Under the pieces are notes generated by a model that saw only the letters and a program-made list of their open reading frames with translations, was not told the DNA's origin and searched no databases. Source: a virus (Duplodnaviria; Caudoviricetes). Taken from it: a stretch of DNA of 64,000 bases. Positions 44,570-59,113 of the stretch are shown here, one piece after another. The translations under genes and the position numbers were made by a program. Each line of letters begins with the position of its first letter. The stretch's first letter is position 1. The DNA lies in IMG/VR virus record IMGVR_UViG_3300020156_000026, positions 1,909-65,908 of that record; one strand, given 5' to 3'.

Positions 44570-44833
44570 TCAAATGTCATCATCTGCGTCACCTGATTGT
44601 TCAGGATCATATGTTTTGTATGCAGAAATGAAACGATTTGCTCGGAATGGAGTATCCATAGTATCAAATCTGTGAATACCAAATAGCCTTACACATAAAT
44701 TATTTTGTCCTGTGTAGTGATCAACAAAGTGTCCTAACCACCTTATTTGATATATTTGATCTTCGATCAACTCATCCTTAATTCCAGAGTTGTCGATACA
44801 AGTAATCCAATCCCCGATCTTAAATGTCGTCAT
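44570..44833 (-). CDS. Tagged small protein 1 (ends YDPEQSGDADDDI)
   Basis: FKIGDW start plus the conserved C-terminal tag. Confidence 0.8.
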   Translation of the reverse strand: MTTFKIGDWITCIDNSGIKDELIEDQIYQIRWLGHFVDHYTGQNNLCVRLFGIHRFDTMDTPFRANRFISAYKTYDPEQSGDADDDI

Positions 44834-45074
44834 CTGTGTCACCATTTTGTTCAGGTGAGTATTCGACAGTTACATGAGTGATATCACGCTGGAAAACGTA
44901 TACATCTTGACTCCAAGTGGTGATATCATCTCTTTTAACATTAAAGATATTAAACTCAGGATTTGATTTTCTCTCTTCAACCAAATCAGTTATCACACCA
45001 AATACAGGGGGAGTACTATTGGGCCAACTGCTTGGATGCCATCTGATCCAATCTCCAACTTTAAATGTCCTCAT
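44820..45074 (-). CDS. Tagged small protein 2 (ends YSPEQNGDTDDDI)
   Basis: FKVGDW start plus tag. Confidence 0.8.
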   Translation of the reverse strand: MRTFKVGDWIRWHPSSWPNSTPPVFGVITDLVEERKSNPEFNIFNVKRDDITTWSQDVYVFQRDITHVTVEYSPEQNGDTDDDI

Positions 45075-45522
45075 CAGTATCCCCATTCTGTTCAGGTGAA
45101 TAGGATTTGACACTTATTTTAAGAAACTCCTTCTTAACCCACCTACCAGAAGTCTCAATCATTTTAGTGGTTGTTCCATCCCAATCATTCTCTTCTTCTT
45201 GAAAATATTCAGGAAGATAAGTAGTGGAAGAGTATCCACCATCGTCAGCGAATTGAATTCGTTGAGGTTTCTGCCATTCAAAAGCCTTCTTCGGAGGTTT
45301 TCCGTTTGTGTCGTAATATTCAAAGTGTTGAAGATAAACACCGTATATCTTATTACGGAAAGTGACCTCTTCATCCGTATCTTCGTCGTACTTATAGTCT
45401 TCAAAATCATTGATAGCAACTACAATACCACGTCCACGGCATTTAAGATTTTTCTTGTCAAGGCGGTGAAACTCTTCAAATTCTACGAAAGTTCCGAGGG
45501 GGAATTCTTCAAATGTCGTCAT
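45061..45522 (-). CDS. Tagged small protein 3 (ends YSPEQNGDTDEDI)
   Basis: Tag; starts inside the upstream gene's tag. Confidence 0.8.
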   Translation of the reverse strand: MTTFEEFPLGTFVEFEEFHRLDKKNLKCRGRGIVVAINDFEDYKYDEDTDEEVTFRNKIYGVYLQHFEYYDTNGKPPKKAFEWQKPQRIQFADDGGYSSTTYLPEYFQEEENDWDGTTTKMIETSGRWVKKEFLKISVKSYSPEQNGDTDEDI

Positions 45523-45832
45523 CCTCATCTCCGGGCTGATCTTTATAATATTGTACAGGATCAAATAGTGATTTTACTCGATCACAATCGACCCTAAAAG
45601 AAGGGTTAAATTTGAATGCATTATCCACTTCTCGCCTTAACGAGTATTCTCTAACAGGAAATGGACGGTTGAAAATATCATTCAAAAAGATATTCCAAGT
45701 TGAGTAATCGTGGTAATGACATATAACTCGGTAAATAATATCTGATCGACCATCAACTATCACTTTAGTGTGTAGTGGATATACTACAGGCTTCTTTTTC
45801 TTCTTAAATATCTTCATCATTAGCTCCGCCAA
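45509..45832 (-). CDS. Tagged small protein 4 (ends YYKDQPGDEDDDI)
   Basis: Variant tag. Confidence 0.75.
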   Translation of the reverse strand: MAELMMKIFKKKKKPVVYPLHTKVIVDGRSDIIYRVICHYHDYSTWNIFLNDIFNRPFPVREYSLRREVDNAFKFNPSFRVDCDRVKSLFDPVQYYKDQPGDEDDDI

Positions 45833-45844
45833 TTCCAGATGCGA

Positions 45845-46150
45845 CTAGATGTCGTCATCAGTATCCCCATTCTGTGATGGGTCATAAGCCCTAATACCCG
45901 GTAGAAGATTTCGACTGCGTCTAGGGACAAGAACACTTTGCGGACAATGTTGACTTGCTCCACCCAGTCCTTGTCTATAAATATGACGGCCACAAGTCCA
46001 GTGGTATCTGGAAGAGCAATCATCATCAACTTTTACAACCCAATCACCGTCATTATACCAATACGTACCTACGATTTCACCCGTAATCTTATAGGCCTTT
46101 CCGTGATTACGGTTTGTATATTGGATGCGATCTCCAATTTGAAATGCCAT
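45845..46150 (-). CDS. Tagged small protein 5 (ends YDPSQNGDTDDDI)
   Basis: FQIGDR start; GAGG RBS; tag. Confidence 0.8.
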   Translation of the reverse strand: MAFQIGDRIQYTNRNHGKAYKITGEIVGTYWYNDGDWVVKVDDDCSSRYHWTCGRHIYRQGLGGASQHCPQSVLVPRRSRNLLPGIRAYDPSQNGDTDDDI

Positions 46151-46164
46151 TTCTTATATACCTC

Positions 46165-46761
46165 TTAAAAATAGTAGGCTTCTAAACCACTTGGATATCG
46201 AATTCTGCTTGCATTTTCAGACCTATCGCCATAGAGGGCTTGATCCATATAAAAATTTATATCGACCGTGTACATCCATGCCTTGACATGTTTGCCCTTT
46301 GCTTGTTGATCAAAGTCAACGAAATGAAGCTCACGATTAACACCTTGAGTGTTACCTTCATGCTTATCAATCTTAGTCAACAAACGAAGAGGGACACCAT
46401 AGATATCTCCCTCTACTGCACGAAGATCATTTTCAGAGAACACATGGTTAATATCTCTCCAAAGACTTCTGTCCTTCTTGGGAAGTTGGAACAGGAGAGG
46501 TTCAGGACGAGAACCAAACCCCGGCTCATACTCCAACGTCTTCATGATGAAGTCATCTTTCCAAGAGATGCCCTTACCATACCAGTTAGCACCTTCAAGA
46601 AGATGATTTTGTGCATGAGCCCTCCTTAGATTGCCAGTAACAAAGATAATGAACTCATCTGTGTTACATCTATTCAAATCTTGGAAATCAGGGGTGTACT
46701 CATTACACCGTTCAAGTACTTCCCAAGGATTGTAATCAAGCGGCTTCCGCGATACGGCCAT
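46165..46761 (-). CDS. Divergent gamma-glutamyl cyclotransferase (AIG2-like)
   Basis: IFVTGNLRR, VEGDIYGV, IDKHEG and AWMY motifs; start moved to MAVSRK. Confidence 0.65.
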   Translation of the reverse strand: MAVSRKPLDYNPWEVLERCNEYTPDFQDLNRCNTDEFIIFVTGNLRRAHAQNHLLEGANWYGKGISWKDDFIMKTLEYEPGFGSRPEPLLFQLPKKDRSLWRDINHVFSENDLRAVEGDIYGVPLRLLTKIDKHEGNTQGVNRELHFVDFDQQAKGKHVKAWMYTVDINFYMDQALYGDRSENASRIRYPSGLEAYYF

Positions 46762-47800
46762 TCTTATCTTCCTTTGCGATCTGTTGCAGACGTGCCTGTG
46801 CCTTATCCTTCGTCTTCTGAAGGAAAGCAATATGAACAGACTGCTTCTTGATAACTTCAGCCATATGCTGGATCAATGCACCAGCAGTGAACTCACCCTC
46901 ATTGGCAATCCAACTGCACCATTCGTCATAGGTCAAGGCGGAGAACTTGGCCACGTCTTTAGGGTCGTCCAAATCCCAACGATCCACAACATCAGTAACC
47001 GCCTTAAGGATACGGGGGTCCTTCGACGTATTGGCACCGTTCCACACCTTGAGCGGACTAGTGGAGGTAGTATTCCCCCCTGTATTCCCTCCAGTGTTCG
47101 AAGAGTGGAGAAAAGGGGCATTCTTCCGATCTTCCGCCTCCTTTGCCTTACGAGCCTCTTCACGACGATTGTGTTCAGGCCCACGACTTACCCTTGTAAT
47201 ATATTCAGTCGTAGAGATCCAAATCTTAGGGGCATTTTCATCGTCTTGCTTGTATTCAGACCAGCCTGACCCAAACCGCATGACAGGAAGGTCATCAGCA
47301 ATCAGAAGACCCTTCGAGTTGTATGTCCAATGCTTCTCAAGAATAAGCTTCCAGAACTCAGCATCGGTGTAATCACCCCGACCATGTTCCCCTTCCCAAC
47401 GAAGAAGTCCCGGCTGAAGGATCTTTTCACAGAACTCAAGGGTATCTGATTTCCCTTCGGTCCCATATGTACCGTAACTGGACAATGTACCGTTGTGGCA
47501 GAACCAAACATTACGCTTACTAGAGTTATAAGCATTGAACGGTTGGGTGTTCTGCTCACTCGTCCCACCCCTAGTGCTATAACGGACGTGAAGAACACGT
47601 TCAATGTCCTTATTAGCTTCAAGGAGAGTCCAGATTTCTTCGGGATCATTACCCTTTTCATCCAACTTCTTAATCACTTGAATCCGTCCATTCCCGTCTT
47701 TCAGGATCAAACCATAGCCATGCCAATTATTCCAAACGGCATTGTACAAATGGTCCTTGTCGGGCATAGCACCAGGGGTGAAGTGGAAAATCGTGCACAA
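46736..47800 (-). CDS. Class II (Ntn) glutamine amidotransferase
   Basis: N-terminal Cys; HGYG, HVRYST, QPF, HNG and SDT motifs. Confidence 0.88.
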   Translation of the reverse strand: MCTIFHFTPGAMPDKDHLYNAVWNNWHGYGLILKDGNGRIQVIKKLDEKGNDPEEIWTLLEANKDIERVLHVRYSTRGGTSEQNTQPFNAYNSSKRNVWFCHNGTLSSYGTYGTEGKSDTLEFCEKILQPGLLRWEGEHGRGDYTDAEFWKLILEKHWTYNSKGLLIADDLPVMRFGSGWSEYKQDDENAPKIWISTTEYITRVSRGPEHNRREEARKAKEAEDRKNAPFLHSSNTGGNTGGNTTSTSPLKVWNGANTSKDPRILKAVTDVVDRWDLDDPKDVAKFSALTYDEWCSWIANEGEFTAGALIQHMAEVIKKQSVHIAFLQKTKDKAQARLQQIAKEDKNGRIAEAA

Positions 47801-47829: not shown

Positions 47830-48069
47830 CTAAATGTCTTCATCAGTATCACCCGACTGTTCAGGTGAATACTTGACAATAATTCGTTCGAGTGCATTGG
47901 GTTCAACTAGCCAGTCAAAATCATGTTCTCTAGCTCGGTCATCCCTTACTCTTACAGCAGTCTTACCCTCCATTCCAGTGACTATAACTATATCACCAGT
48001 TTTCAATGGTGCCGATGAGGGACGATCTTCAATAACCCTTACTTGTTCACCAGGTTCAAATATCTTCAT
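47830..48069 (-). CDS. Tagged small protein 6 (ends YSPEQSGDTDEDI)
   Basis: FEPGEQVRV SH3/KOW-like start plus tag. Confidence 0.8.
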   Translation of the reverse strand: MKIFEPGEQVRVIEDRPSSAPLKTGDIVIVTGMEGKTAVRVRDDRAREHDFDWLVEPNALERIIVKYSPEQSGDTDEDI

Positions 48070-48319
48070 CTATGTCACCATTCTGATCAGGTGAATAAGG
48101 TTTGATTACCTGATGGGGTTTCCACCATTGTTCATCACTATTCCAATGCTGAAGTTTTCCAACTGGATAAGAATTGGGCGCATTAGTCTCGATACATTCA
48201 CCCCATGCGGGATATAAAGAATGTTTATGAAACTTTACGATAATAATGGTGGAGCCTTTGTTAGCCCCAGGAGCTGGAGTATCACTCCCTCCCCCACACC
48301 ATTTGTAGATACCTTCCAC
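48056..48319 (-). CDS. Tagged small protein 7 (ends YSPDQNGDIDEDI)
   Basis: Tag; coupled to the ATP-grasp stop codon. Confidence 0.75.
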   Translation of the reverse strand: MEGIYKWCGGGSDTPAPGANKGSTIIIVKFHKHSLYPAWGECIETNAPNSYPVGKLQHWNSDEQWWKPHQVIKPYSPDQNGDIDEDI

Positions 48320-49134
48320 TAGATCCTCCCAAAGGCATTAGCATAGTTGGTAACAGTAGTACCTACAAGACCCGGAGCCGTGTTGACTTCAAGTACGAAT
48401 GCCTGTGACTCACGCTCATTGTAGATTACATCCGCTGCACCAAAGTCAAGACCAAGTGCATTTACTGCTGCAACACCAGCATCAAGAACAGACTGTGGGG
48501 GAGTACGACCATCGTTACGTACAAAGACGAAACCATTGGCAAGGTTACGTACCATCCAATTGACATCTTCCTGACCACGAAATTCCTCACGGAGGCCCTT
48601 CCGCTGTACGTCAATTACCTGATTGCGCAGGACATGCACACGATATTCATCCTTCTTCTTTTTGTACTTGACATAAAGATTAGCACGAACGTCCCAAGTA
48701 TCTCCCTGTTCAGGGTCCATGATGACAATACCACGACCAGAATGTCCACGAAGGACAGTACGAGCCATGACTGTTTCATCAGCTTCAAGCCAACGATGAG
48801 CTTCGGCGATATCAGTGGTAAATTCCGGAATAGGAACACCAGCAGCTTGAAAAGCACGAAATGCCTGAAGCTTATCAGATGCCACATCAACACGTTCAGG
48901 ATGATTAAGAACGCGGCAGTTCAACAAGGTTTCCGGTGCACTCTCACGAACCTTCTGAAGACCTGCACCCCAATTGATGATAGTTTTATCAGGCTTTCCA
49001 CGGAAGTTAGAACCATGGTGCTTGATGCGGGGAACACTAAGGGCACGAGCCAGTTCCTTAGAACCTTCGGAATGCTGATTGTATGCGAACATTGCAGTAA
49101 TAGACATTTCAAATATCTCCGTCTTCATCGCCAT
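48319..49134 (-). CDS. ATP-grasp peptide/amide ligase
   Basis: SDKL, GHSGRGI, EYRVHV, DFGAADV and LEVNTAPG motifs; true start may be near 49107. Confidence 0.9.
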   Translation of the reverse strand: MAMKTEIFEMSITAMFAYNQHSEGSKELARALSVPRIKHHGSNFRGKPDKTIINWGAGLQKVRESAPETLLNCRVLNHPERVDVASDKLQAFRAFQAAGVPIPEFTTDIAEAHRWLEADETVMARTVLRGHSGRGIVIMDPEQGDTWDVRANLYVKYKKKKDEYRVHVLRNQVIDVQRKGLREEFRGQEDVNWMVRNLANGFVFVRNDGRTPPQSVLDAGVAAVNALGLDFGAADVIYNERESQAFVLEVNTAPGLVGTTVTNYANAFGRI

Positions 49135-49450
49135 TCTGTTCAGGCGAATACTTTGTTAACTTGTAGAGCTTTTCAATTTTATGTCGAGATACTACCGATT
49201 TATACCACTCATGGGCTCCACCCGGTTCATCTTTATCTCGGTCGAGATAATTAAACCCGTCCACTCTTACTCTTATTTGCCAGTCACGAGAATTAGTAAT
49301 TACGGAAACCACCTCTCCTTTGACAATGCCATCTTCCGGAATGGGATTAATCAATGAACGGTTTGATTTTATATCCCAAAATATACTATTAAGGTTTAGG
49401 ATATCTCCGACTTGGAATTCAGATGTCATATTTGCCCTCGCAAATTTCAA
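49109..49450 (-). CDS. Tagged small protein 8 (ends YSPEQNGDEDGDI)
   Basis: FQVGDI plus tag. Confidence 0.78.
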   Translation of the reverse strand: MKFARANMTSEFQVGDILNLNSIFWDIKSNRSLINPIPEDGIVKGEVVSVITNSRDWQIRVRVDGFNYLDRDKDEPGGAHEWYKSVVSRHKIEKLYKLTKYSPEQNGDEDGDI

Positions 49451-49458: not shown

Positions 49459-49794
49459 TCAGATATCATCATCTTCGTCACCATTTTGATCAGGTGAATA
49501 GGGTTTATGCAGAAGGCTTAACTTATTTTCTGGGAACCAATACCCATAAGAATAGTTCTTCAACCTCCTATTTATACTATCACCAGTAAAGTATTCACTT
49601 ATGTACTTCATACATGTGTCAGACAGATAGAGATAATGATGAAAATGACTACTCCCATTGTCGAGAAGTACTCCAAAAGGGTGTGCACTATATGCTGGAT
49701 CTTCCATTTCAGAGATAGCAACAATAGTGCCAGTATACTCTTTATGAGAACCCATATATGGCTTACATACTACACGATCACCAAGATTAAACAT
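49459..49794 (-). CDS. Tagged small protein 9 (ends YSPDQNGDEDDDI)
   Basis: MFNLGDRVV start overlapping the amidoligase end; tag. Confidence 0.8.
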   Translation of the reverse strand: MFNLGDRVVCKPYMGSHKEYTGTIVAISEMEDPAYSAHPFGVLLDNGSSHFHHYLYLSDTCMKYISEYFTGDSINRRLKNYSYGYWFPENKLSLLHKPYSPDQNGDEDDDI

Positions 49795-50821
49795 CTGCTG
49801 TTGCCTCAATAGTACGCACATTATTATTCCGAAGATGATACATCTCCGAGATAACAGTACGTTCATGTTCCGAAACTACATCAAAAGGAGAACCAAACTT
49901 CTCAATAGAAAGTTCATCGAGAGGTTTCTTGAGCTTTTCCTTATAGATTGGCTTGATCTTGAGAATACCAAACTTCTTCCAATCGGTAGTGATGGAAGCA
50001 AACTTGGCAGCATACGTGAGATTTACCTTGCAAAGATTTTCCGTTTCCTTCCCCTGCTTCAATACATTTGCATGTTCTTGGAACACAAGATCAACAAAAG
50101 CATTAGCACCAAGGCGCTTATACTCAAGGATGATCTTAACAGGATCAAGGTTAGGACGCTTTGCATACTCCTTCATCTTCAGAAGGATTTCAGCCCACTG
50201 AAAGATGATACGTTTGTCAGTCTCACCACGGAAAGAACGTACCTCTGCTGTCCCAAGAGTGGTAAGATTTGCCATATTAAGCGCAGCATACTTGCAACGT
50301 TCTGATGACAACCCAAGTCTGCCAAACATTCTCTTGTTGACCATCTTGAGAAGGTTCTCAAACTGAGTTACTGCACCCTCTGCATCCATCATCGGGAGAC
50401 AAAACAAGTTAGACAGACGATCAGGACCACTATACCGAATGAGAAGATTCTCCACGATGGCATAGGTTGTCATGAAATTGACCAAGCTAAGGAAAGTCTC
50501 ATTCAAGAAGTTCAGATGAACGTGAACCGAAGTAGAGATACTATCCTTGCGGAACTCGTACGTCTTGTTTACGCCATCAAACTCATCGAGGGCTAGTGAC
50601 AATCCCTTCAAGTCGAGAGGCTCCTTGAGAATGTATTCAACCCCGTAATCACGAAGAGATCCATCCTTCTTGGCCACCCAATATTTCAATCGGGGGTATT
50701 CATACCTCTTACTGCTATCCACTTCAGTTTCAATTTCGACACCAAAGTCACCAGTGTATCGCTTACCGCCGAACTTACCAGTTTGCTTGAAGATGTCGTA
50801 AATATTCGACAGTTCTTTCAT
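49787..50821 (-). CDS. Putative amidoligase (GS-fold COOH-NH2 ligase, Amidoligase_2-like)
   Basis: GVEIE, DGSLR..GVEY, SVHVHLN, KYAALN and EVRSF motifs. Confidence 0.88.
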   Translation of the reverse strand: MKELSNIYDIFKQTGKFGGKRYTGDFGVEIETEVDSSKRYEYPRLKYWVAKKDGSLRDYGVEYILKEPLDLKGLSLALDEFDGVNKTYEFRKDSISTSVHVHLNFLNETFLSLVNFMTTYAIVENLLIRYSGPDRLSNLFCLPMMDAEGAVTQFENLLKMVNKRMFGRLGLSSERCKYAALNMANLTTLGTAEVRSFRGETDKRIIFQWAEILLKMKEYAKRPNLDPVKIILEYKRLGANAFVDLVFQEHANVLKQGKETENLCKVNLTYAAKFASITTDWKKFGILKIKPIYKEKLKKPLDELSIEKFGSPFDVVSEHERTVISEMYHLRNNNVRTIEATADV

Positions 50822-50822: not shown

Positions 50823-51437
50823 TTATACCTCGACTACAGTCCAACCAGGGACTTCCTCAATCACATCCTTATAGATGAAAGAGAGTTCACTCTTGGGAAT
50901 GTTGATCGTAGTGCTACCCACACGCATAGTTCCAACTTCTTCTTCCTTGACAAAGATAGAATAGTTAGCACCTACGCGCTTGAGAGCCACATTACGTGAT
51001 ACAGCAGCAGATGCCCATCCACCTTTGATAAGCATTTCTTGTGCAGATACCACAGTTGGATACTTGTTCATCACACAATCAACCAATCCTTGGCACTGTT
51101 GAAGACTACCAAAGTTGATCGAACCCTCTTCACCAAGAGTTTTCTGTGTGAGATAGCTGATTTCAACACCTTGCTTGAACCGACGGAGAGGTTCACGCTT
51201 AAGATATACAGCCAACTTCTTTCGGCCTGCAAAATTCACATAGCCGAGAGGAATGGAACTAATATCTAGATCAGCATCATCCGGTTCCACACGTCGGATG
51301 AGTTCTCCCTTGACCAAATCAACTAGACCAATAGTACCAGTTGAATCCACCTCTGCAATAAACGGAGTACCCTTATGACGGATAATCGTATGGTGCAGAC
51401 GTGCACGAATGTCATCACCTTTATACTTATTGCGCAT
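50823..51437 (-). CDS. Hypothetical protein of the amidoligase cluster
   Basis: IPLGYVN...YLKREPLRRFKQG; lies between the two ligases. Confidence 0.75.
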   Translation of the reverse strand: MRNKYKGDDIRARLHHTIIRHKGTPFIAEVDSTGTIGLVDLVKGELIRRVEPDDADLDISSIPLGYVNFAGRKKLAVYLKREPLRRFKQGVEISYLTQKTLGEEGSINFGSLQQCQGLVDCVMNKYPTVVSAQEMLIKGGWASAAVSRNVALKRVGANYSIFVKEEEVGTMRVGSTTINIPKSELSFIYKDVIEEVPGWTVVEV

Positions 51438-51446: not shown

Positions 51447-51776
51447 TTAAATATCCTCATCCGTATCGCCATTCTGTTCAGGCGAGTATGGTTTTGTTTT
51501 AGCCTTTATATAAATTTTATGCGTCTTACGGCTAATATGAGTTCCAGCACCTGTTGGTATATGATTCCACGGATAATCCGAAAATCTTGCCCAAACTCTA
51601 TTCTCTCCATGAAGTTTCGATATCATGGCTTCTGCGGAGTTATGAGTCACATATCCATAACGAATACGTGAAAGATCACCAGTATGCCATGGATCTCTTA
51701 CATAGAGGATTTCATCCCCTTCTTTAAGTTCAACGGATTTGTCGAGGGGGACATAACCTTCTGGAATTTTAACCAT
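51447..51776 (-). CDS. Tagged small protein 10 (ends YSPEQNGDTDEDI)
   Basis: LKEGDEI plus tag; start moved to MVKIP. Confidence 0.8.
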   Translation of the reverse strand: MVKIPEGYVPLDKSVELKEGDEILYVRDPWHTGDLSRIRYGYVTHNSAEAMISKLHGENRVWARFSDYPWNHIPTGAGTHISRKTHKIYIKAKTKPYSPEQNGDTDEDI

Positions 51777-51780
51777 AGGA

Positions 51781-52488
51781 TTACATTCCCGTAATCTCTT
51801 GAAGGGTAGTACGGACCTCATTGAACATCTTCCGTCGAAGCTTTTCTTCACTCACCCACACATTAGAAGGGGCACGAAGTTCTACTCCATACTTCTTGGG
51901 ACGGAAGGAACCACTGTGGCCATAATACCTCAACCGCTCCTGCTCATCTTGGGTATTGGGGGAGAAGGATAACAGGTGTGCATTATAGAACCCCTGCGCA
52001 ATATAGAGGCAATCCTCGAAGTGGTCTCGAACAGTAGGATCATCAACGTTAGTCCAACCAATATGGACATGGCCAGCCGCAGTACGAATGGGACGATCTT
52101 CCAGACGCATGATGGGGTTTTCATTCACTTCCCCATGAACATTAAAGTCCGGATCACATCCAAGCACCTTCGCCTGATCAGGTACGCTCGACCAAACACG
52201 TTCAGAGAACTTCGCCAGAGGTACAAAACGAAGAATGAGGTCTTTGTCAACCTTTTTCACCATTTCATCCATCTGTTTCAACACAGTTTCAATGTTCCGA
52301 TTGAACTGATCTTCTGTTTCAGCAGGATCAATGTTGAACTCAGCAGCTACACCATCCGGCTGAACTGCGCCACACTCTACCTGAAACGGAGATTTCTTCG
52401 ACCCAGGAATAATATCGTGAGCAGAGATAAAAGTCCCTGCCTTGTCAACAATAAAAAGTTCCGGATCAGCACCCAAAAGAATTGCCAT
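51781..52488 (-). CDS. phiEco32-like COOH-NH2 ligase type 2
   Basis: GADPELF, DGVAAEFN, GCDPD, RTAAGHVHIG and YG..GSFRPKKYGVELR motifs. Confidence 0.9.
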   Translation of the reverse strand: MAILLGADPELFIVDKAGTFISAHDIIPGSKKSPFQVECGAVQPDGVAAEFNIDPAETEDQFNRNIETVLKQMDEMVKKVDKDLILRFVPLAKFSERVWSSVPDQAKVLGCDPDFNVHGEVNENPIMRLEDRPIRTAAGHVHIGWTNVDDPTVRDHFEDCLYIAQGFYNAHLLSFSPNTQDEQERLRYYGHSGSFRPKKYGVELRAPSNVWVSEEKLRRKMFNEVRTTLQEITGM

Positions 52489-53592
52489 TTATGCATTTTC
52501 CTTTAAAACGTTAAGTGGATCACACTCTTCGCAATAATGCTTCTGCATTGAAGAGTCCCACCGAGGATAACCTTTAAGACCCCGACGAGAATAATTTGTC
52601 TCAATCAGGTTCATTGTCTTAGCTCCACACGCACATTTGGAGAAAAATGACTTAATCTTCCCGTTTTCTTGTGATTTCGGAAAGTCAACTACATTATTTT
52701 TATTGGCAGGAGTAATTTTCTCTTGCTTTAATGGATAAGAGTACTCAGGAGCAGTCCAACCAAAGGCATGTTGATCCTCTTTTGACTTAACCTGAGGTAC
52801 AGACGTAGGCTTAAAAGGGGCCTCGTCCTTCTTTTCCTCCTTCTTCTCCAACTCTGGCTTGAAAAGGTGAGTTACCTTCATACAATCCAGCGCAGCCTTC
52901 TTACAGGAAATCTCCGAAGGGACAACCTTTAAAAGTTTATGGGGAAGAAGATTGAAATACTTGGCATTAACACCATGCCTGTTCAAGACGAACTTGAGCA
53001 TTTCCTTTTCAGATGCCCAATACATCACATTACGATCTTCCAAAAAAGCAAGAGCTAGTGTTCGCTTCTCATTTCGACCGAAATATAATGCACCATCAGT
53101 GCGATCATAGATAACAACTGCATATGCACTGTCGTCATTCAACTCACTGATGACAGGAATGATCCCACGATTGTTCATATCGCGGAACATAAGTTCACTG
53201 TCCGTCTTATCCTTGTCCTGATACTTCTGATCCTTCAGTGTACCATTATGGGCACCAACAAAACGTTCAACAATGAAGGGATGAGAGTTAGCACTACAGA
53301 TACGACCACGAGTAGCAGCACGAACGTGCATCATGATGATATCACAGGATACGTTATTCAACACATCCTTATATGCTTTGTCCCAATCAATCTCATCCAA
53401 CATAGTACTGAAATTTTCAGAAGTTTTGTAGATGAAAGAGTTGTTAAACTTTTGGTTTCGACGAGCAGAAGAAATTTGAAAAACTCCTGCACCATCTCTT
53501 CCCCGAATTTGCGACAAGATGCCGAGGTTACGGGCGATAGACAAGTCTTGGGCATTAATTCCTGGGCCAGCTAACCCTGCGTGTCCACACAA
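52489..53592 (-). CDS. Class II (Ntn) glutamine amidotransferase with C-terminal Cys pairs
   Basis: MCGHAG, RGRDGAG, HVRAAT, HPF, AHNG and TDSE motifs; CAC...CEEC tail. Confidence 0.9.
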   Translation of the reverse strand: MCGHAGLAGPGINAQDLSIARNLGILSQIRGRDGAGVFQISSARRNQKFNNSFIYKTSENFSTMLDEIDWDKAYKDVLNNVSCDIIMMHVRAATRGRICSANSHPFIVERFVGAHNGTLKDQKYQDKDKTDSELMFRDMNNRGIIPVISELNDDSAYAVVIYDRTDGALYFGRNEKRTLALAFLEDRNVMYWASEKEMLKFVLNRHGVNAKYFNLLPHKLLKVVPSEISCKKAALDCMKVTHLFKPELEKKEEKKDEAPFKPTSVPQVKSKEDQHAFGWTAPEYSYPLKQEKITPANKNNVVDFPKSQENGKIKSFFSKCACGAKTMNLIETNYSRRGLKGYPRWDSSMQKHYCEECDPLNVLKENA

Positions 53593-53607: not shown

Positions 53608-53901
53608 TTAAATGTCATCATCAGTATCACCCGATTGTTCAGGTGAATACGGTCTTACGACCTGTTTGAATCTCCAAGGGTAAGCATTAGGGATTACATC
53701 ACCAGTTTTAAGTTCAGTTACAGGGACTGTCTGGTATTTATGACCATACCTTTCTGTTTCTCCAAAACTTAATTGCTCCCATTGATGATCTGTATAGGAT
53801 GGTCCTGAAAGATAACCTTCGTGTGGAATGTCAATCTCATAAAGCTCACCCACGATCAGACGACCGCTATATGTACTCACTGCTTCAACTATTACTTTCA
53901 T
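53608..53901 (-). CDS. Tagged small protein 11 (ends YSPEQSGDTDDDI)
   Basis: Tag; ATGA coupling. Confidence 0.8.
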   Translation of the reverse strand: MKVIVEAVSTYSGRLIVGELYEIDIPHEGYLSGPSYTDHQWEQLSFGETERYGHKYQTVPVTELKTGDVIPNAYPWRFKQVVRPYSPEQSGDTDDDI

Positions 53902-54503
53902 CGGAGCAACCCCACAAGAGCAAGGAAATGAGACTTCTGGCTGTAATCCCTAGCCCTTTCAGGACGAGGTTGATAACAAAGACAATTGGTGTCGTCATAC
54001 CAAACGATCTCTGATTCAAACTTAGGAAATACCACGGGGTTAATACCTTCACGATAGAAGGCTTTCCCTACATTTTCAGAGTACCCCAAGATTTCAGCCT
54101 TGTCAGTTGGAATCATCATCTGATGGTGAGTGCTATCTACACGCATCAAACTATGGTCCAAGGTATTATAGATGTAGTGATCACCTACATGCCCACTCAC
54201 ATGCTGATAGAGCTTACCTCCATTCATCACATTAAGGAACTGAGCCCCTCGTCCAATACCCACCTTCAACTGCTTCTTACGAGTTGCCCGCCAGACCTCA
54301 CAGTCCAACTTATCCCTCATAAGATTTAGGTTGACAGTTCTGTGAGCTTTCGTCTCACCATAAAGTTCAGGATTAACATCCTCACCTCCAGGAAAAACTA
54401 CAATATCAGCGTTCTCTGCACGAGAAATGATACTGAAATTCTCATCAGAAAATAGTTTAGCGACTTCTCGGTCGTGAGTTGAAAACCCAACTGTAATTGA
54501 CAT
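53898..54503 (-). CDS. Class I glutamine amidotransferase / peptidase C26-like protein lacking catalytic residues
   Basis: PGGEDVNPELYG, RD and STHHQ motifs; GIGRGAQ instead of GICRG and QPRPE instead of QxHPE. Confidence 0.8.
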   Translation of the reverse strand: MSITVGFSTHDREVAKLFSDENFSIISRAENADIVVFPGGEDVNPELYGETKAHRTVNLNLMRDKLDCEVWRATRKKQLKVGIGRGAQFLNVMNGGKLYQHVSGHVGDHYIYNTLDHSLMRVDSTHHQMMIPTDKAEILGYSENVGKAFYREGINPVVFPKFESEIVWYDDTNCLCYQPRPERARDYSQKSHFLALVGLLR

Positions 54504-54512: not shown

Positions 54513-54836
54513 TCATATGTCATCGTCAGTGTTACCGTTTTGATCAGGTGAATACGGTTTAATCGAATCAACTTTTTTGAGAAAATCCATCCGACATAGA
54601 TATCCATCCGGATTATAACGGCCATCGTAACTTAATAGGTATTCTCTTATTTCAGGGGTTTCCCATCTGATCACCGCCATATCCGAAAACTCTTTTATTG
54701 CGAGGATCACCCCCTCGCCGGAGATACGAGACGAAAAAGCCCCATGATAAGAGATTCGATCCCCTGTCTTTAAACGAGTTCGTTCTTCCAACGTTCCTGC
54801 TCCATACGGATCTGACGGAGGGAAAGGTTCAACCAA
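54513..54836 (-). CDS. Tagged small protein 12 (ends YSPDQNGNTDDDI)
   Basis: LKTGDRI plus tag; start uncertain. Confidence 0.75.
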   Translation of the reverse strand: MVEPFPPSDPYGAGTLEERTRLKTGDRISYHGAFSSRISGEGVILAIKEFSDMAVIRWETPEIREYLLSYDGRYNPDGYLCRMDFLKKVDSIKPYSPDQNGNTDDDI

Positions 54837-55435
54837 GCATCACCACGGTTCTGCCATGTGTACAGGTCAATACCAAACTTCATCTTGATATGGCGACGAG
54901 CCACTTCAGGAGAAACGAGAAGAACTTCACCAACAGGGTTGTCCAAGATAGCATTCTGCTGAACGATCTTATTGACCTTGAGGTTCTTGATAGCTTCGAA
55001 CTTCTGACGAGCAGGGTCAGGCTTCTTCGGAGGATCGATCTTGTCCCGAAGTTCAATCAACTCCTTGTGGAATGCGTTAAGGCTCTCTTCATACTTGGTA
55101 GGATTAGTAGCCCACAAGGCAAGATCACCAGTCTCCTTATGGCGATGTGCGTCGTTATCCTTCTTAGTGCCAACGTAAACTCTCTCAAATCCACACTTCG
55201 GCATGAACTCGTCAAGACCATAGTTGTCGATCTGATTCTGTGTAGTGAACGCATGAAGGATAGCAAAGTCACGCTTGAACCCTCCCTTACGAAGATCTTC
55301 CACCATTCCAAGTTGAGCCCGAAGTTTCAGCTTAGGGTCTTTGTCATTGAGTCCTTGACGGGACCAACCAGTGATCAAAGAGGCAGTGCAAGTAGTCGGT
55401 ACAGAATTATGTTGGATCATATTACTTCCTTTCAA
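54770..55435 (-). CDS. Hypothetical protein of the cluster
   Basis: Codon use like highly expressed genes; AAGGA RBS before MIQHNS. Confidence 0.7.
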   Translation of the reverse strand: MKGSNMIQHNSVPTTCTASLITGWSRQGLNDKDPKLKLRAQLGMVEDLRKGGFKRDFAILHAFTTQNQIDNYGLDEFMPKCGFERVYVGTKKDNDAHRHKETGDLALWATNPTKYEESLNAFHKELIELRDKIDPPKKPDPARQKFEAIKNLKVNKIVQQNAILDNPVGEVLLVSPEVARRHIKMKFGIDLYTWQNRGDAWLNLSLRQIRMEQERWKNELV

Positions 55436-55821
55436 ATATCAAGGTCTGCATCATCACCGGATTGTTCCGGAGAATAAGGTTTGATTAGTTTTCGGTAGAT
55501 GTAGAGAGGAAATCTTTCTTGGCTGATAAGACAATGAGAACCTCCCCTCGATTCATCAATTGACACCCTCTCTGCTGACTCCAATGAAAAAGTTTCATTA
55601 TCTGCGAAGCTGAAGATAGCATAAATTCGCTGATCATCACATTGACTAAGTGTCTTTTTAGTCACCTTTCCAAAATGTTTAAATCCGGGAGCATAACTTC
55701 TAGTAAACTCCCCTTCATGTGTCCAAAAGATAATATCTCCTGGAGCTATTTGGTTTTTAGAGAGGATACGTTCGTATTCACCATCATATATCATCATTAG
55801 CTCCACTAATTCCAATGACAC
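55432..55821 (-). CDS. Tagged small protein 13 (ends YSPEQSGDDADLDI)
   Basis: IAPGDII plus a tag with a one-residue insertion. Confidence 0.75.
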   Translation of the reverse strand: MSLELVELMMIYDGEYERILSKNQIAPGDIIFWTHEGEFTRSYAPGFKHFGKVTKKTLSQCDDQRIYAIFSFADNETFSLESAERVSIDESRGGSHCLISQERFPLYIYRKLIKPYSPEQSGDDADLDI

Positions 55822-56111
55822 TATATGTCATCATCTTGATCCCCGTTCTGATCAGGTGAATAATGAGTAGTAGCAATCTTCACAAGAGCCATAATACCAA
55901 AACGAGTATCATTGGGGTTTTTCTCTATGGATCTATCTATGGCTTCATGTAGTGCTATACCGTCATCCCAATCGATGAAATAACTATCACCATAAATTAC
56001 TTCACGGACTGTACCCTTATGAATCCCTTTAATTTTAAGAAAAGGGTTAAAGAATTGTATTCGATCACCAACACTCAAACGTTGGCGAGATTGTTCATCC
56101 CAAGAAATCAT
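55821..56111 (-). CDS. Tagged small protein 14 (ends YSPDQNGDQDDDI)
   Basis: LSVGDRI plus tag; GAGG RBS. Confidence 0.8.
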   Translation of the reverse strand: MISWDEQSRQRLSVGDRIQFFNPFLKIKGIHKGTVREVIYGDSYFIDWDDGIALHEAIDRSIEKNPNDTRFGIMALVKIATTHYSPDQNGDQDDDI

Positions 56112-56131
56112 AGGGACCCTCTATTTTTGTG

Positions 56132-56160: not shown

Positions 56161-56307
56161 TATACAAGTAGTATATATATATACTCTATTGGTATACACC
56201 ATTGGGATATCTAAAAGAATTATATTAACTTATTGTTCCATTAGATATACCAATAGAATATATCCCCAAGTATATTTCAACTTGGGGATTATATATTTCC
56301 TGAAGAA

Positions 56308-56565: not shown

Positions 56566-56774
56566 TCGTAGATCAAAGAATCACTTTTTTCGCTTAGAGT
56601 GATCCGAGCGGTGACTTCATAAACTTCAAAATCCTGAAGATCACCGAAACCTTGACTGAGGATGTGAGCAGAAATAGCCTTTTCAACCCCCTTTTGAGAG
56701 GGGAACAGACCATCGATACTTTCCTCATTAACAACCTGCTCAGTACCATCCAGTATCAAATACTTCTTTGTCAT
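56547..56774 (-). CDS. Hypothetical protein
   Basis: RBS; tight packing. Confidence 0.6.
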   Translation of the reverse strand: MTKKYLILDGTEQVVNEESIDGLFPSQKGVEKAISAHILSQGFGDLQDFEVYEVTARITLSEKSDSLIYDWKFEK

Positions 56775-56787
56775 TCAAAGACCCTTC

Positions 56788-57024
56788 CTAATCATTGCAA
56801 AGAGTGACAGTGCCGATATAATCGGTAAATTCATCAGGTATAAAATTTCCTGATGTTCCGATACCCTCACCTTTTTTACTTTCACCATGGATGATTACAC
56901 CATGGTAAAAGAGATTATCCTGGCGGGTTGCCAAGATGATTGTATGGGGGTGAATTTTCCGTGCCATCAACTTAGGGAATGGACGGTAACATCTGCAATT
57001 ACGTTCGCCGAGTTCACTCTTCAT
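56788..57024 (-). CDS. Hypothetical protein
   Basis: Ends FTDYIGTVTLCND; tight packing. Confidence 0.6.
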   Translation of the reverse strand: MKSELGERNCRCYRPFPKLMARKIHPHTIILATRQDNLFYHGVIIHGESKKGEGIGTSGNFIPDEFTDYIGTVTLCND

Positions 57025-57026
57025 TG

Positions 57027-57416
57027 TTACCTACTCCAATAGTGTTCATTACCATCAATGTGGCAATGTTCCATTCCTACAAAATTACGCCAGCAGTTCT
57101 TGCCACCGACGTACATGCCCACTTCTCGTCCCCCTCGTGTTACCACGTTCTCACGTGTGTACATGTGGGGAACACCTTCAAGACCATCCAAACGGGCTAG
57201 TGTACTTGCCGCCCGTTCATCCGTTAGGGGATCACCAATATCCCATACTTCACCACGCACAGCAGTGAGAGGGTTAGGATTAGCGACGGGGAAACCAGAA
57301 TAATAAAGCTCGTAACCTTCGACAACATCTTCACCTACCAGTGTAGCTTGACCTGATGACAGGATACGATTGTTACCGTACCCCTGCTTCAACGTTCCGT
57401 ATACAAAAACCTGCAA
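57027..57416 (-). CDS. Gamma-glutamyl(amine) cyclotransferase (GGACT/AIG2-like)
   Basis: VFVYGTLKQG, VRGEVW and LDGLEG...YTR motifs. Confidence 0.9.
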   Translation of the reverse strand: MQVFVYGTLKQGYGNNRILSSGQATLVGEDVVEGYELYYSGFPVANPNPLTAVRGEVWDIGDPLTDERAASTLARLDGLEGVPHMYTRENVVTRGGREVGMYVGGKNCWRNFVGMEHCHIDGNEHYWSR

Positions 57417-57659
57417 TTAATTTACCTTTTCTCTTTTGATCGCCATACTAATCTTTTCAACTGGCTTGAATATAACTTCACAGAGGTAGAATTCTGGAGC
57501 AGACAAAGAAAACTCTTCAAACTCATCTTCAGCATTACTTCTAGACCAATGGATGCCAGAAATGTCGTTTACTTCTTCTACACCTTCAGACTTTGGGTTA
57601 GTTTCGACAAGACAATAAAATCTACCTTCTGCATCAATAGTAATAGTTTTCTTTTTCAC
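57417..57659 (-). CDS. Hypothetical protein
   Basis: Tight packing. Confidence 0.55.
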   Translation of the reverse strand: MKKKTITIDAEGRFYCLVETNPKSEGVEEVNDISGIHWSRSNAEDEFEEFSLSAPEFYLCEVIFKPVEKISMAIKREKVN

Positions 57660-57859
57660 AGCCGAAATTCCTGTGTGATGAGTGAAGCATGATGTTCGCG
57701 CATATCCTCAAGGATACGAGAACCCTCGGGTAGTTCCCAAATACGGTCTGCTTGCCTCATAACTGCCCGTACAGAGGGTTTCTCATCCCTGCCGAAGGTA
57801 GACTGCTCCTGAGCAAAGATGCGCTTGTATAGCCTTCCATGACGTTCTGTGTATTTCAC
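57656..57859 (-). CDS. Hypothetical protein
   Basis: Tight packing. Confidence 0.55.
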   Translation of the reverse strand: MKYTERHGRLYKRIFAQEQSTFGRDEKPSVRAVMRQADRIWELPEGSRILEDMREHHASLITQEFRL

Positions 57860-57998
57860 CTCAACAACCCCTTTTTCTTGAGGGCTTTAATGATCGCTTT
57901 AGCCTCTTGTTCCACAGAAGTGCGATCCCATTCACTTAGCCCAGCATGTCGGATAATAGTATCCGTGATTAAATCTAATACCTCTTGTTGAGGTTTTT

Positions 57999-58385
57999 TC
58001 ACTTGATAATCCTCGCGTCAGTCGGAATATCATCAGTAAAAGTGATTTCCAACTTTCCGACGATCTGACTCTTGTAATAACGGGCAGCAACCTCAGAATC
58101 TTTTATTATTCCCCACCCTTCTTTCCAAGATCTTCCTCCGATAATAGTAGCTACCTTCTTCTCGATGATAGGCTCATGATATTCATGCCAATTGACGCAA
58201 CTTTTCATATCCCACAGAAGTTCTTGCCCGACACGAACAAAACTTGTTGGATCTGGCAGGACGGTGTAAGTAACCACCATCTTCTCATCGCCTACCCAGA
58301 GAACCTTTATAGTCCTCTTGGTTTCGTTATTTCTGTATTCCTTACCAACTTCAAATGTCACCTTCGTCATCCCCATTTGTTTCAC
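57999..58385 (-). CDS. Hypothetical protein, paralogue of 60257..60628
   Basis: FEVGKEY...NWHEYHEP...VGKLEITFTDDIPTDARII. Confidence 0.7.
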   Translation of the reverse strand: MKQMGMTKVTFEVGKEYRNNETKRTIKVLWVGDEKMVVTYTVLPDPTSFVRVGQELLWDMKSCVNWHEYHEPIIEKKVATIIGGRSWKEGWGIIKDSEVAARYYKSQIVGKLEITFTDDIPTDARIIK

Positions 58386-58397
58386 AAATTCCAGTGT

Positions 58398-58661
58398 CTA
58401 GATGTCACTATCTAGATCACCCTCTTGTCCTGGCTCGTATGGTACGGAAGCCGTTGGATCTAGTTCATAATATCCACCCCAAGGAGGGGGTGCCCCCGGA
58501 ATAGGGCAATGCGCATGTGGTACAGCAGTCAACGGGGTTGTTGCAGCACCAAGTTTATGGACTTCAAGTGCAGCACCCCACGACGTGACGGCAACACATT
58601 TGTACTTAGTACCAATTGTACTATGACCACGAAACCGATACCATCGTCCAACCTTAAACAC
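58398..58661 (-). CDS. Tagged small protein 15 (ends YEPGQEGDLDSDI)
   Basis: FKVGRW start plus a variant tag. Confidence 0.72.
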   Translation of the reverse strand: MFKVGRWYRFRGHSTIGTKYKCVAVTSWGAALEVHKLGAATTPLTAVPHAHCPIPGAPPPWGGYYELDPTASVPYEPGQEGDLDSDI

Positions 58662-58801
58662 TAAGAAGACCCTTCTTCATAGCCTTCAAAGTAGCTTCAG
58701 CAAGGTTCCCCAAATCTTCAGGGAAAGCACAGATCACTTTGCTCCCCTGTTTGATGACATGCTTCTTCACAAGAGTATTAAACTCAATTGTGTATTCGTC
58801 A

Positions 58802-59113
58802 TTAGATGTCGTCATCTTGATCCCCATTCTGATCAGGTGAATAAGATTTCATCGGAAGGATTTGGTATATTCGGCCACCAGATTGCCTAAATGTTTTGTA
58901 AGAATACTTATATCCACCGGGTCTTGTAGTCTTACCAAGAGTGCGAGAATAGGTATCATACCACATATCCACGCAGAGCTGATCACCATTTTACCATAGA
59001 TGGTGATAAAACCCCGGCCATTCGTTAAGATACCCCCAATATTCCCCATCATGAAGATCATGCAAGGACATTGCAACGAAGGGGAGATTGTGAACCTTTT
59101 CAAAGGTTATCAT
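58802..59113 (-). pseudogene. Tagged small protein 16 (ends YSPDQNGDQDDDI), interrupted by an in-frame TAA
   Basis: ATG at 59113 overlaps the upstream stop (ATGA); 104 codons in one frame with TAA as codon 41 (58991-58993). Confidence 0.7.

Follow-up and report, generated by a model that had tools for sequence, protein, structure and literature searches.

Sixteen small proteins of one phage share an acidic C-terminal tail

We analyzed a 64,000-nucleotide stretch of viral DNA (Duplodnaviria; Caudoviricetes), positions 1,909 to 65,908 of IMG/VR record IMGVR_UViG_3300020156_000026. This stretch, referred to here as the window, is nearly the whole of the 65,908-base virus record, which is rated 97% complete. 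It contains an array of 16 open reading frames (ORFs) for small proteins of 56 to 167 amino acids (aa), all encoded on the minus strand and interleaved with genes for amide-bond enzymes. All 16 end in a common C-terminal tail, Y-[SD]-P-x-Q-x-G-D-x-D-x-D-I, directly followed by the stop codon. An earlier note, made from the sequence alone, had named sixteen stop positions, and every one of them was found to close a tagged minus-strand ORF. The members of the array are as follows.

58802 to 58972, minus strand: tagged small protein, 56 aa, ending YSPDQNGDQDDDI; the tag contains the ATG of the next ORF
58398 to 58661, minus strand: tagged small protein, 87 aa, with the most divergent tail, YEPGQEGDLDSDI
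55821 to 56111, minus strand: tagged small protein, 96 aa, with a predicted SH3-like core (core profile E 2.3e-5)
55432 to 55821, minus strand: tagged small protein, 129 aa (longest start), whose tail is longer by one residue, GDDADLDI
54513 to 54836, minus strand: tagged small protein, 107 aa; N replaces D8 in the tail
53608 to 53901, minus strand: tagged small protein, 97 aa, carrying the tail sequence
51447 to 51851, minus strand: tagged small protein, 134 aa, carrying the tail sequence
49459 to 49866, minus strand: tagged small protein, 135 aa (longest start), with a predicted SH3-like core (core profile E 5.2e-8)
49109 to 49450, minus strand: tagged small protein, 113 aa, carrying the tail sequence
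48056 to 48319, minus strand: tagged small protein, 87 aa, immediately following the ATP-grasp gene; the core has a blastp relative in phage RHph_N3_13
47830 to 48069, minus strand: tagged small protein, 79 aa, carrying the tail sequence
45845 to 46150, minus strand: tagged small protein, 101 aa, belonging to the largest SH3-like cluster
45509 to 45832, minus strand: tagged small protein, 107 aa, tail YYKDQPGDEDDDI
45061 to 45564, minus strand: tagged small protein, 167 aa (longest start); the likely start lies within the upstream tag
44820 to 45113, minus strand: tagged small protein, 97 aa (longest start), carrying the tail sequence
44570 to 44845, minus strand: tagged small protein, 91 aa, which closes the array ahead of the primase-helicase region

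Among 1038 stop-to-stop ORFs of at least 30 codons scanned in all six frames, only these 16 contained the motif. In the 65,908-base genome, a DNA pattern for the final 8 tail codons gave 13 matches on the minus strand and none on the plus strand, and the reversed pattern, used as a control, gave 0 and 0 matches on the two strands. The same six-frame scan revealed a possible 17th member (112 aa, 36339 to 36677, minus strand) with a partial tail, ..APDVGDEEDDI, that corresponds to the last eight tail residues and lacks the Y..Q part. Its neighbors are an endonuclease I-like gene and a phosphoesterase, and it had no relative among the fetched related loci.

According to the GC skew, genes are oriented on the minus strand from about 28 kb to the right end of the window. 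The order of transcription begins with small ORFs, continues through the tagged/enzyme region (59.0 to 44.5 kb) to the primase-helicase, and is followed by an AAA ATPase, the DNA polymerase, a gp2.5-like protein and genes of nucleotide metabolism. The tagged array thus belongs to the early/replication strand, flanked by the leftmost small ORFs on one side and by the primase-helicase on the other, and the structural genes are distant and on the other strand.

Conservation of the tail at the peptide level

Codon entropy was calculated over the 13 tag codons of 15 tags, excluding the tag at 55432 with its one-codon insertion. Y1, Q5, G7, D10, D12 and I13 are invariant in all 15 in-register tags, in agreement with the invariance of Y, Q, G and the terminal DI reported in the earlier note. 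Position 2 is S in 11 of the 15 window tags and D in most relatives, and position 9 is T in 7 of the 15. The remark that the tail is often preceded by K/R-P applies to 6 of the 16 tags. Mean entropies at codon positions 1, 2 and 3 were 0.38, 0.36 and 1.17 bits for the window tags, 0.41, 0.32 and 1.42 for 15 tags of Rhizobium phage RHph_N3_13, and 0.54, 0.34 and 1.34 for the tags of Sinorhizobium phage phiM6. In all three phages, third codon positions are therefore about three times as variable as the first two. The 15 window tags use all three stop codons (TGA 6, TAA 5, TAG 4) and all four glycine codons (GGT 8, GGG 4, GGC 2, GGA 1). The synonymous variation from which selection on the peptide had been proposed was thereby confirmed.

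A rival explanation holds that the tails are nucleic acid cassettes (Shine-Dalgarno sequence, start codon, shared junctions for translational coupling or recombination) and that the peptide is a by-product. A contribution of this kind can be seen at some junctions: in 5 of the 16 tags, the following gene takes its ATG from the GAT GAC codons, at a distance of 14 nt from the end of the stop codon, and N termini of the M-T-T-F-K type arise because the tag DNA supplies this ATG. Such cassettes are found in two other phages, Salinivibrio phage CW02 (L032), in which 9 ORFs end in ..P-x-L-L-E-E-N-V, and Citrobacter phage CVT22 (L035), in which about 19 small ORFs end in ..L-E-N-E. The DNA of these endings is nearly invariant and places a GGAG before the next start codon: the CVT22 ending reads TTG GAG AAT GAA TRR directly followed by ATG, with codon-position entropies of 1.03, 0.64 and 0.93, and the CW02 ending reads GAG GAG AAT GTA TGA. 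In CW02 and CVT22, a standardized coupling cassette appears to impose the common protein ending.

The window tails behave differently from what this rival predicts. Besides the excess of third-position variability and the free use of stop and glycine codons, the gene next to 10 of the 16 tags begins 1 to 29 nt past the stop codon and has an upstream sequence of its own, no ORF follows one further tag, and the Y..PxQ half has no role in coupling. Given the third-position variability and the overlap of start codon and tag at only a few junctions, the conservation is therefore on the peptide. An explanation at the DNA level, which the earlier note had listed as a possible refutation, was looked for and accounts for only part of the pattern. 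We consider the nucleic acid explanation of the window tails largely refuted and, as a general account, hardly credible; the tail is conserved at the peptide level, with a secondary use of the DNA at some junctions.

A separate resemblance was seen downstream of two tags. The 30 bases 3′ of the stops at 45845 and 55821 (45815 to 45844 and 55791 to 55820, minus strand) are alike, reading ..TGGAATT.G.GGAGCTAATGATG, which suggests a duplicated gene junction.

Variable cores and their SH3-like kinship

The proteins upstream of the tail are far less alike. Mean pairwise identity among the 16 window proteins is 0.69 for the tags and 0.24 for the cores. We collected 122 nonidentical tagged proteins from the window and related loci; once the tags were removed, blastp grouped the cores into one cluster of 44 and a remainder of mostly singletons, and 14 of the 16 window cores had no blastp relative in the set. 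The claim that the proteins lack mutual similarity therefore holds at the pairwise level. It does not hold for profiles: the profile of the large cluster reaches 59 of the 122 proteins at an E value of ≤0.001, and a tag-stripped core profile matches 6 window ORFs at E ≤0.01. The consensus of the large cluster, F-k-v-G-D-r-V ... G..G.V ... V.wD.g, is probably that of an SH3-like barrel.

Kinship to SH3-like proteins was also found with a profile of 36 tagged proteins, which gave 979 matches at E ≤0.001 among 1.84 billion representatives. Among the best 150 of these 979, 77 are small proteins of 74 to 119 aa, and all 77 carry the tail. The other 73 are long proteins with 3 to 17 repeats of the SH3-like unit. 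All five long proteins that were scanned carry domains that we take to be SH3-like barrels, among them SH3_12, SH3_15, DUF1918 and NHase_beta_C. An AlphaFold2 (AF2) model of the protein encoded at 45845 to 46150 was all-beta but poor (pLDDT 59), and its best Foldseek rows were SH3, Tudor, KOW or PWWP-like, all of them weak (E >0.1). A good share of the cores nevertheless belong to one diversified SH3-like family that is dissimilar only in pairwise comparison. When the last 40 residues of one tagged protein were used as a homology query, the query itself was the only match, and a protein-atlas search returned unnamed viral clusters as sole matches.

One terminal peptide on dissimilar, fast-changing proteins recalls the targeting of T4 internal proteins and encapsulin cargo peptides, and the tail could in principle be a virion-targeting signal that loads the small proteins into the capsid for injection. 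Those systems sit or are timed with structural genes, whereas the window's array belongs to an early-middle, replication-side module among metabolic enzymes, on the early/replication strand and far from the structural genes. In addition, a tail of such strong acidity would be unlikely to associate with packaged DNA. The probability of virion targeting is accordingly rated as very small.

Enzyme genes interleaved with the tagged ORFs

Ten larger genes are interleaved with the tagged ORFs: two for GGACT (gamma-glutamyl cyclotransferase) proteins, two for class II N-terminal nucleophile (Ntn) hydrolases, one each for an ATP-grasp protein, an Amidoligase_2 protein, a COOH-NH2 ligase and a C26-like protein, and two without a Pfam match.

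57027 to 57416, minus strand: GGACT (gamma-glutamyl cyclotransferase) copy B, PF06094 E 4.2e-16
54770 to 55435, minus strand: GNAT-like protein (221 aa), fold match, no Pfam match, tail-bearing lineage only
53898 to 54503, minus strand: Peptidase_C26/class I amidotransferase-like protein, Pfam E 3e-16
52489 to 53592, minus strand: Ntn (class II) amidotransferase-like hydrolase copy B, module core, GATase_6 E 1.5e-9, GATase_4
51781 to 52488, minus strand: phiEco32-type COOH-NH2 ligase (GS-like fold), Pfam match below cut-off, 28 to 56% tblastn identity in 10/10 phages
50823 to 51437, minus strand: conserved protein (204 aa) between the GS-like ligases, phrog_11055, PHROG E 1.4e-18
49787 to 50821, minus strand: Amidoligase_2 (GS-like fold), Pfam E 8.5e-6, above cut-off
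48319 to 49134, minus strand: ATP-grasp ligase, RimK/Ddl-like, 35 to 63% identity in 10/10 phages
46736 to 47800, minus strand: Ntn (class II) amidotransferase-like hydrolase copy A, GATase_4 E 5.1e-6, tail-bearing lineage only
46165 to 46830, minus strand: GGACT-like cyclotransferase copy A, Pfam E 1.8e-5, tail-bearing lineage only

None of these ten proteins, with or without a Pfam match, carries the tail, as had been stated for the enzymes. The family assignments of the earlier note were borne out. The Amidoligase_2 and Peptidase_C26 matches exceed the Pfam cut-offs; those to COOH-NH2_lig (20.1 bits, cut-off 25) and ATP-grasp (17.9 bits, cut-off 31.4) fall below them, and these two proteins show 43% and 45% tblastn identity, respectively, to genes of phage PA11 that are so annotated. 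The window ATP-grasp protein has a weak ATPgrasp_ST match and a DdlB match at E 4.1e-4; RimK (PF08443) is found in 10 of the 120 homologs listed, and some homologs are named RimK-type in their source records. Both Ntn hydrolases start with Met-Cys (MCT.. and MCG..). EgtC and PuuD are enzymes that cleave gamma-glutamyl amides, and GGACT enzymes cleave gamma-glutamyl-amine bonds. Family descriptions likewise assign the cleavage of gamma-glutamyl amides to the Ntn, C26-like and GGACT families. The C26-like protein of the window reads GIGRG and QPRPE; RHph_N3_13, phiM6, PA11 and CW02 have GICRG and Q[PG]HPE.

The protein encoded at 54770 to 55435 has no sequence match to any Pfam or PHROG family. 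Its AF2 model (pLDDT 86) gave a best Foldseek E value of 7.7e-4 (probability 1.00) and VIA Z scores of 5.8 to 8.0, with 49 of 50 rows covering residues 1 to about 126 and nearly all of them acetyltransferases. In the model, the first ~110 residues resemble the C-terminal half of GNAT acyltransferases; only half of a GNAT domain is covered. There were 40 homologs of this protein; the longest contigs listed, those above 60 kb, measured 66 to 71 kb, with one of 130 kb. It is absent from eight other phages that carry the module.

Distribution of the tail and of the enzyme module

A megablast search with 7.9 kb of the region against phage records returned no match; hence, the phage collection holds no close DNA relative. 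At the protein level, the nearest cultured phages are Rhizobium phages RHph_N3_13, N3_19 and I3_11 and Sinorhizobium phage phiM6, with primase-helicase identities of 71 to 72% (≤35% for the next relatives). RHph_N3_13 encodes the same enzymes together with 15 tailed small ORFs, located in slots between the enzymes that match those of the window. In phiM6, another tail, Y-[KR]-x-D-Q-E-P-x-[ED]-[ED]-E-E-x-[LI], is found on 13 small ORFs.

Searching IMG/VR with the tail DNA pattern yielded 28 stretches, of which four single matches look like chance. All contigs with at least two tails also have enzyme homologs or counterparts of the same replication genes. Among one genome per prokaryote species (185,579 species' genomes), the pattern gave 37 stretches. 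Multiple matches were confined to one 67.9-kb scaffold (14 matches) and three short contigs, and enzyme homologs are present on all of these; the ~30 single matches are near the number estimated for chance. The 67.9-kb scaffold, which lies in a bacterial metagenome-assembled genome (L054, L056, L081), combines tails with the enzyme and replication genes and looks like a phage of the tail-bearing lineage binned with a bacterium. With the phiM6-type tail pattern, IMG/VR returned 34 single matches and no multi-match contig, which were taken as chance. Searches for related loci with the amidoligase alone or with a three-row alignment confirmed no locus. In summary, the tail traveled with the ligase cluster in every contig in which it was found, as the co-occurrence check proposed earlier had anticipated. 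The tail-bearing contigs measure roughly 66 to 70 kb, and the tail family is large and, as far as seen, confined to one lineage of phages of 66 to 70 kb.

The module was compared across ten phage lineages that carry the ATP-grasp gene. ATP-grasp, COOH-NH2 ligase and one Ntn hydrolase are present in all ten, and Amidoligase_2 is present in nine. Three proteins are restricted to the window, RHph_N3_13 and phiM6: the second Ntn hydrolase (GATII_A), the second GGACT protein (GGCT_A) and the GNAT-like protein. Neither shared endings nor matches to the tag-stripped SH3-like profile were detected in PA11, phiEco32, phiIBB-PAA2, HP1, Vibrio 275E43-1 or Privateer. In CW02 and CVT22, three ORFs each match that profile. 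The distant relatives HTVC115P and CRP-9, which lack the module, have no tail family either, and this was counted in favor of a link between the tail and the enzymes.

Concerted evolution of the tails and covariation with enzymes

Tag identity is higher within genomes (0.785) than between genomes (0.692), and a difference of this size was reached in 0 of 2000 label shuffles. Preferences at the variable tag positions are genome specific, such as that for the residue following the Gln: N in the window, T in RHph_N3_13, and Q or M in others. Since the synonymous sites of the tags are not homogenized within genomes, this pattern resembles the effect of selection by a common partner more than that of gene conversion. 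The hosts of phiM6 (Sinorhizobium) and of the RHph phages (Rhizobium) are close relatives. The tails of phiM6 and RHph nevertheless differ throughout, despite otherwise similar genomes. Different tails on phages of related hosts argue for a partner that is carried by the phage, not for a conserved host protein, and the data point to one co-evolving partner per phage genome.

To compare candidate partners, tail distance was correlated with the distance of each module protein, given primase-helicase distance, in partial Mantel tests (6 to 9 genomes, 2000 permutations).

COOH-NH2 ligase: partial correlation 0.85, reached by 5 of 2000 permutations
Ntn hydrolase copy A: partial correlation 0.69, reached by 18 of 2000
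ATP-grasp: partial correlation 0.67, reached by 29 of 2000
C26-like: partial correlation 0.65, reached by 91 of 2000
204-aa protein: partial correlation 0.60, reached by 65 of 2000
GNAT-like: partial correlation 0.55, reached by 87 of 2000
Amidoligase_2: partial correlation 0.54, reached by 242 of 2000
GGACT copy B: partial correlation 0.38, reached by 351 of 2000
GGACT copy A: partial correlation 0.37, reached by 254 of 2000
Ntn hydrolase copy B: partial correlation 0.21, reached by 566 of 2000
DNA polymerase (control): partial correlation 0.09, reached by 600 of 2000

As a lead, tail divergence appears to track the COOH-NH2 ligase, the ATP-grasp protein and the second Ntn hydrolase more than the DNA polymerase. 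These correlations come from few genomes and 11 tests, are partly driven by phiM6 and are confounded by the physical linkage of tags and enzymes, all of which counts against reading them as proof of a partnership.

Possible conjugation or cross-linking of the tail

The earlier note had offered three forms of a link between tail and enzymes: a Pup-like handle, a graspetide-like core peptide and an adaptor tail. In the Pup-like form, the GS-like ligases would attach the small proteins to amines of host proteins or of the cell wall, via the tail carboxylate or a deamidated Gln. Some features recall pupylation (Pup, PafA, Dop): there are two GS-fold ligases, two Ntn hydrolases with an N-terminal Cys, one of which could be a deamidase, and a short C-terminal element that includes an invariant Gln. 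Both the second Ntn hydrolase and the second GGACT protein are specific to the tail-bearing lineage, and GATII_A tracks tail divergence. However, the invariant Gln is internal (residue 5 of 13, eight residues from the end), and the tail has no GG[QE] end, as all 16 proteins terminate in D-I. A Pfam scan of the ten proteins at E ≤0.01 detected no Pup-ligase family, although a distant GS-fold kinship is possible. Moreover, the carriers are folded and diverse, and a modifier would not need sixteen different folded domains. The Pup-like form is therefore considered improbable.

The graspetide-like form would make the loci resemble those for ribosomally synthesized and posttranslationally modified peptides (RiPPs): the ATP-grasp enzyme would macrocyclize the tail as a core peptide, or the tail would be cut off, with the variable domain serving as leader. 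An ATP-grasp gene adjoins short C-terminal Asp-rich peptides here, and many precursors would be found in one locus. Acceptor Asp residues are invariant, but an invariant Ser, Thr or Lys donor is found neither in the window nor in the 77 relatives. RiPP loci keep the leader and vary the core; here, the relation is reversed (identity of 0.69 for the tail and 0.24 upstream of it). The presumed leaders are folded domains in proteins of 56 to 167 aa, and the same ATP-grasp occurs in phages without such peptides. This form is considered highly improbable. The adaptor tail is the best fit of the three to the data.

A proposed constant handle on variable binder domains

Our leading explanation, which is tentative, is that the tail constitutes a constant handle on variable binder domains and is read or modified by the phage's own amide-bond enzymes. 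The tagged proteins would be a fast-diversifying family of small cytoplasmic proteins, made early or mid infection, in which the SH3-like beta-barrel core (present in many) is the variable, target-binding part. The constant 13-residue acidic tail with its free aliphatic carboxy terminus would be the handle for a single co-evolving, phage-encoded partner, most likely one or more of the COOH-NH2 ligase, the RimK/Ddl-like ATP-grasp protein and Amidoligase_2. Ligases of these families activate carboxylates, and the tail offers invariant Asp residues as well as a free terminal carboxylate; an acidic tail would therefore suit them. The likeliest chemistry would be an ATP-consuming reaction that couples an amino acid or amine (probably glutamate) to a carboxylate of the tail, as with RimK/ribosomal protein S6, the tubulin glutamylases and LysX/LysW. 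The Ntn hydrolases, the C26-like protein and the gamma-glutamyl cyclotransferases might act as trimming or erasing enzymes. Plain docking, by which the tail would bring the enzymes onto the cargo of the variable domain, is nearly as likely as chemistry on the tail. That the partner is encoded by the phage, which enzyme it is, and whether any chemistry takes place were all inferred from the comparisons above. A predicted complex of the ATP-grasp protein (with alignment), the GNAT-like protein (with alignment), ATP and the protein encoded at 45845 to 46150 scored 0.40, 0.04 and 0.00 in three runs, relative to a mark of 0.32, a spread that speaks neither for nor against binding.

RimK/S6, TTLL/tubulin and LysX/LysW are systems in which ATP-grasp enzymes act on acidic protein tails. 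The window shares with them a RimK/Ddl-type ATP-grasp beside constant acidic C-terminal tails, with hydrolases of gamma-glutamyl bonds nearby. In contrast, their substrates end in Glu, and the tails end in Ile in the window and in Leu in phiM6; furthermore, the window has 16 candidate substrates per genome, with variable folded domains.

Several observations weigh against the enzymes as partners of the tail. Window-type tails occur within one lineage, with primase-helicases 70 to 79% identical, so that the co-occurrence with the enzymes amounts to a single phylogenetic event. The four core enzymes are present in the six lineages without tails; thus, they do not need the tail, and their primary substrate must be something else. 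In phiM6, the tagged genes form one block upstream of the enzymes instead of being interleaved with them. CW02 and CVT22, considered as independent cases of a peptide tag, were rejected, since a Shine-Dalgarno-plus-start cassette largely explains their endings. The C26-like protein of the window, although intact, has lost two catalytic residues, the nucleophilic Cys and the His kept by four relatives. All 16 window tails terminate in Ile (Ile, Leu or Val in the family), and the ATP-grasp tail substrates known to us end in Glu. An acidic run with a terminal hydrophobic residue is the usual form of a pure docking tail, such as that of the single-strand binding protein (SSB). The proposal that the tail is a substrate or docking site of the enzymes thus gains from co-occurrence, concerted evolution and the Mantel correlations and loses from the six tail-less lineages; on balance, a link between tail and enzymes is plausible.

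The closest rival explanation turns part of these observations to its favor. The tail might serve for docking, or as a degron, in relation to a factor of host or phage origin that does not belong to the enzyme cluster, such as a protease/unfoldase that clears early proteins on schedule or a hub of replication or transcription; the closeness to the ligase genes would then reflect a shared placement in a plastic early-middle region. The acidic run and the invariant terminal aliphatic residue with a free carboxylate are typical of C-terminal docking tails. In particular, the last four residues, DDDI, equal the start of the SSB tip (DDDIPF), which like the T7 gp2.5 and gp4 tails is a docking handle with an acidic run and a hydrophobic C terminus. 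The putative gp2.5-like protein of this phage ends in NDDIPW and Privateer gp085 ends in NDDIPF. The six lineages with enzymes but no tails and the separate block in phiM6 are also as expected. On the other hand, the defining feature of the SSB tip, its terminal Pro-aromatic pair, is missing from the tail, and the Y-x-P-x-Q-x-G half of the tail has no counterpart in SSB. The sharp difference between phiM6 and RHph tails and the genome-specific flavors are unexpected for a conserved host hub, and among the 185,579 species' genomes the pattern outside the lineage was limited to single matches at chance level. Finally, tail divergence follows some module enzymes and not the DNA polymerase. A factor outside the cluster is therefore possible but somewhat unlikely.

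In a more far-reaching form of the enzyme-handle explanation, the phage would encode a reversible system for tagging proteins, comparable to pupylation or the tubulin code, with the tail as its site of recognition and attachment. The tail carboxylate, or the invariant Gln after processing by an Ntn hydrolase, would be activated by the GS-like and ATP-grasp ligases. These ligases would then build removable gamma-glutamyl or amino acid chains or covalently couple the SH3-like binder to the host protein that it has bound. The Ntn hydrolases, the C26-like protein and the cyclotransferases would be the erasers, and each genome would provide sixteen exchangeable targeting domains. We consider this form unlikely.

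Neighboring genes and candidates set aside

Just downstream of the DNA polymerase, a 205-aa ORF (38038 to 38655, minus strand) terminates in ..DDLNDDIPW, an acidic tip of the classical SSB type. Its product matches no Pfam family and, by position and tail only, is taken for a gp2.5-like single-strand binding protein. Proteus phage Privateer gp085 (L038:16754-17035; 93 aa), which adjoins the ATP-grasp gene of Privateer and ends in ..NDDIPF, does not look like an SSB. Mimicry of the SSB tail was dropped as an explanation of the tags, as the terminal Pro-aromatic pair is missing and the phage has a classical tail of its own.

An AAA ATPase (40624 to 41775, minus strand) lies between primase-helicase and polymerase and adjoins tagged genes in two related contigs (L004:1688-2449 and L081:307-1446). 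It was considered as a tag-reading unfoldase and dropped because many unrelated large phages encode it (398 records); the 25 matches listed and the ten commonest organism names included no phage of Rhizobium or Sinorhizobium. All 5 lineages with shared endings encode the C26-like protein, compared with 1 of the 6 that lack such endings. The protein was nevertheless dropped as a reader of the tail, since the lineages are related, two of the five endings are largely driven by the ribosome-binding site, and the window copy lacks the catalytic residues. A trypsin-like serine protease with a hydrophobic N-terminal segment is encoded at 34265 to 35059 (minus strand), within the replication-side module.

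Relation to known phage modules and significance

The module corresponds to the operon of phiEco32, LUZ24, PA11 and phiRIO-1 that is said to have been described by Iyer et al. in 2009 and Hardies et al. in 2013 as one for a "gamma-glutamyl amide or unusual peptide bond." The two agree in their core genes, in the order of these and in the position immediately upstream of the primase-helicase. The core comprises ATP-grasp, COOH-NH2 ligase type 2, Amidoligase_2 and the class II amidotransferase-like Ntn hydrolase, often with GGCT and C26. Beyond this, the window's lineage has the second Ntn hydrolase, the second GGACT protein, the GNAT-like protein and 13 to 16 tailed SH3-like proteins.

In the announcement of the phiM6 genome, seven ORFs were assigned to peptide-bond synthesis, and the proposal that such a module modifies host peptidoglycan was cited. 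PMC4819975 speaks of an operon metabolizing gamma-glutamyl amide linkages, and PMC10580990 (2023) states that the function of the module is still to be explored; the action of RimK on the C terminus of S6 is present in abstracts. Within the library searched, full-text literature searches returned no description of the tail or of the small-protein family. The feature is real, strongly nonrandom and apparently undescribed.

No substrate of the module has become known in the more than 10 years since its first description, and the tail would be the first candidate for a substrate or docking handle. Two systems of the tail-bearing lineage are in culture: phiM6, with Sinorhizobium meliloti as host, and the RHph phages, with Rhizobium phaseoli. 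Should the tail be modified or conjugated, it would represent a new viral posttranslational tagging system, in which a short peptide tag is served by ligases of its own. If it is used for docking only, the architecture of a constant handle with hypervariable binders at conserved genomic slots would still be notable. A pattern of constant handle and variable binder is what would be expected of a repertoire for host takeover or counter-defense.

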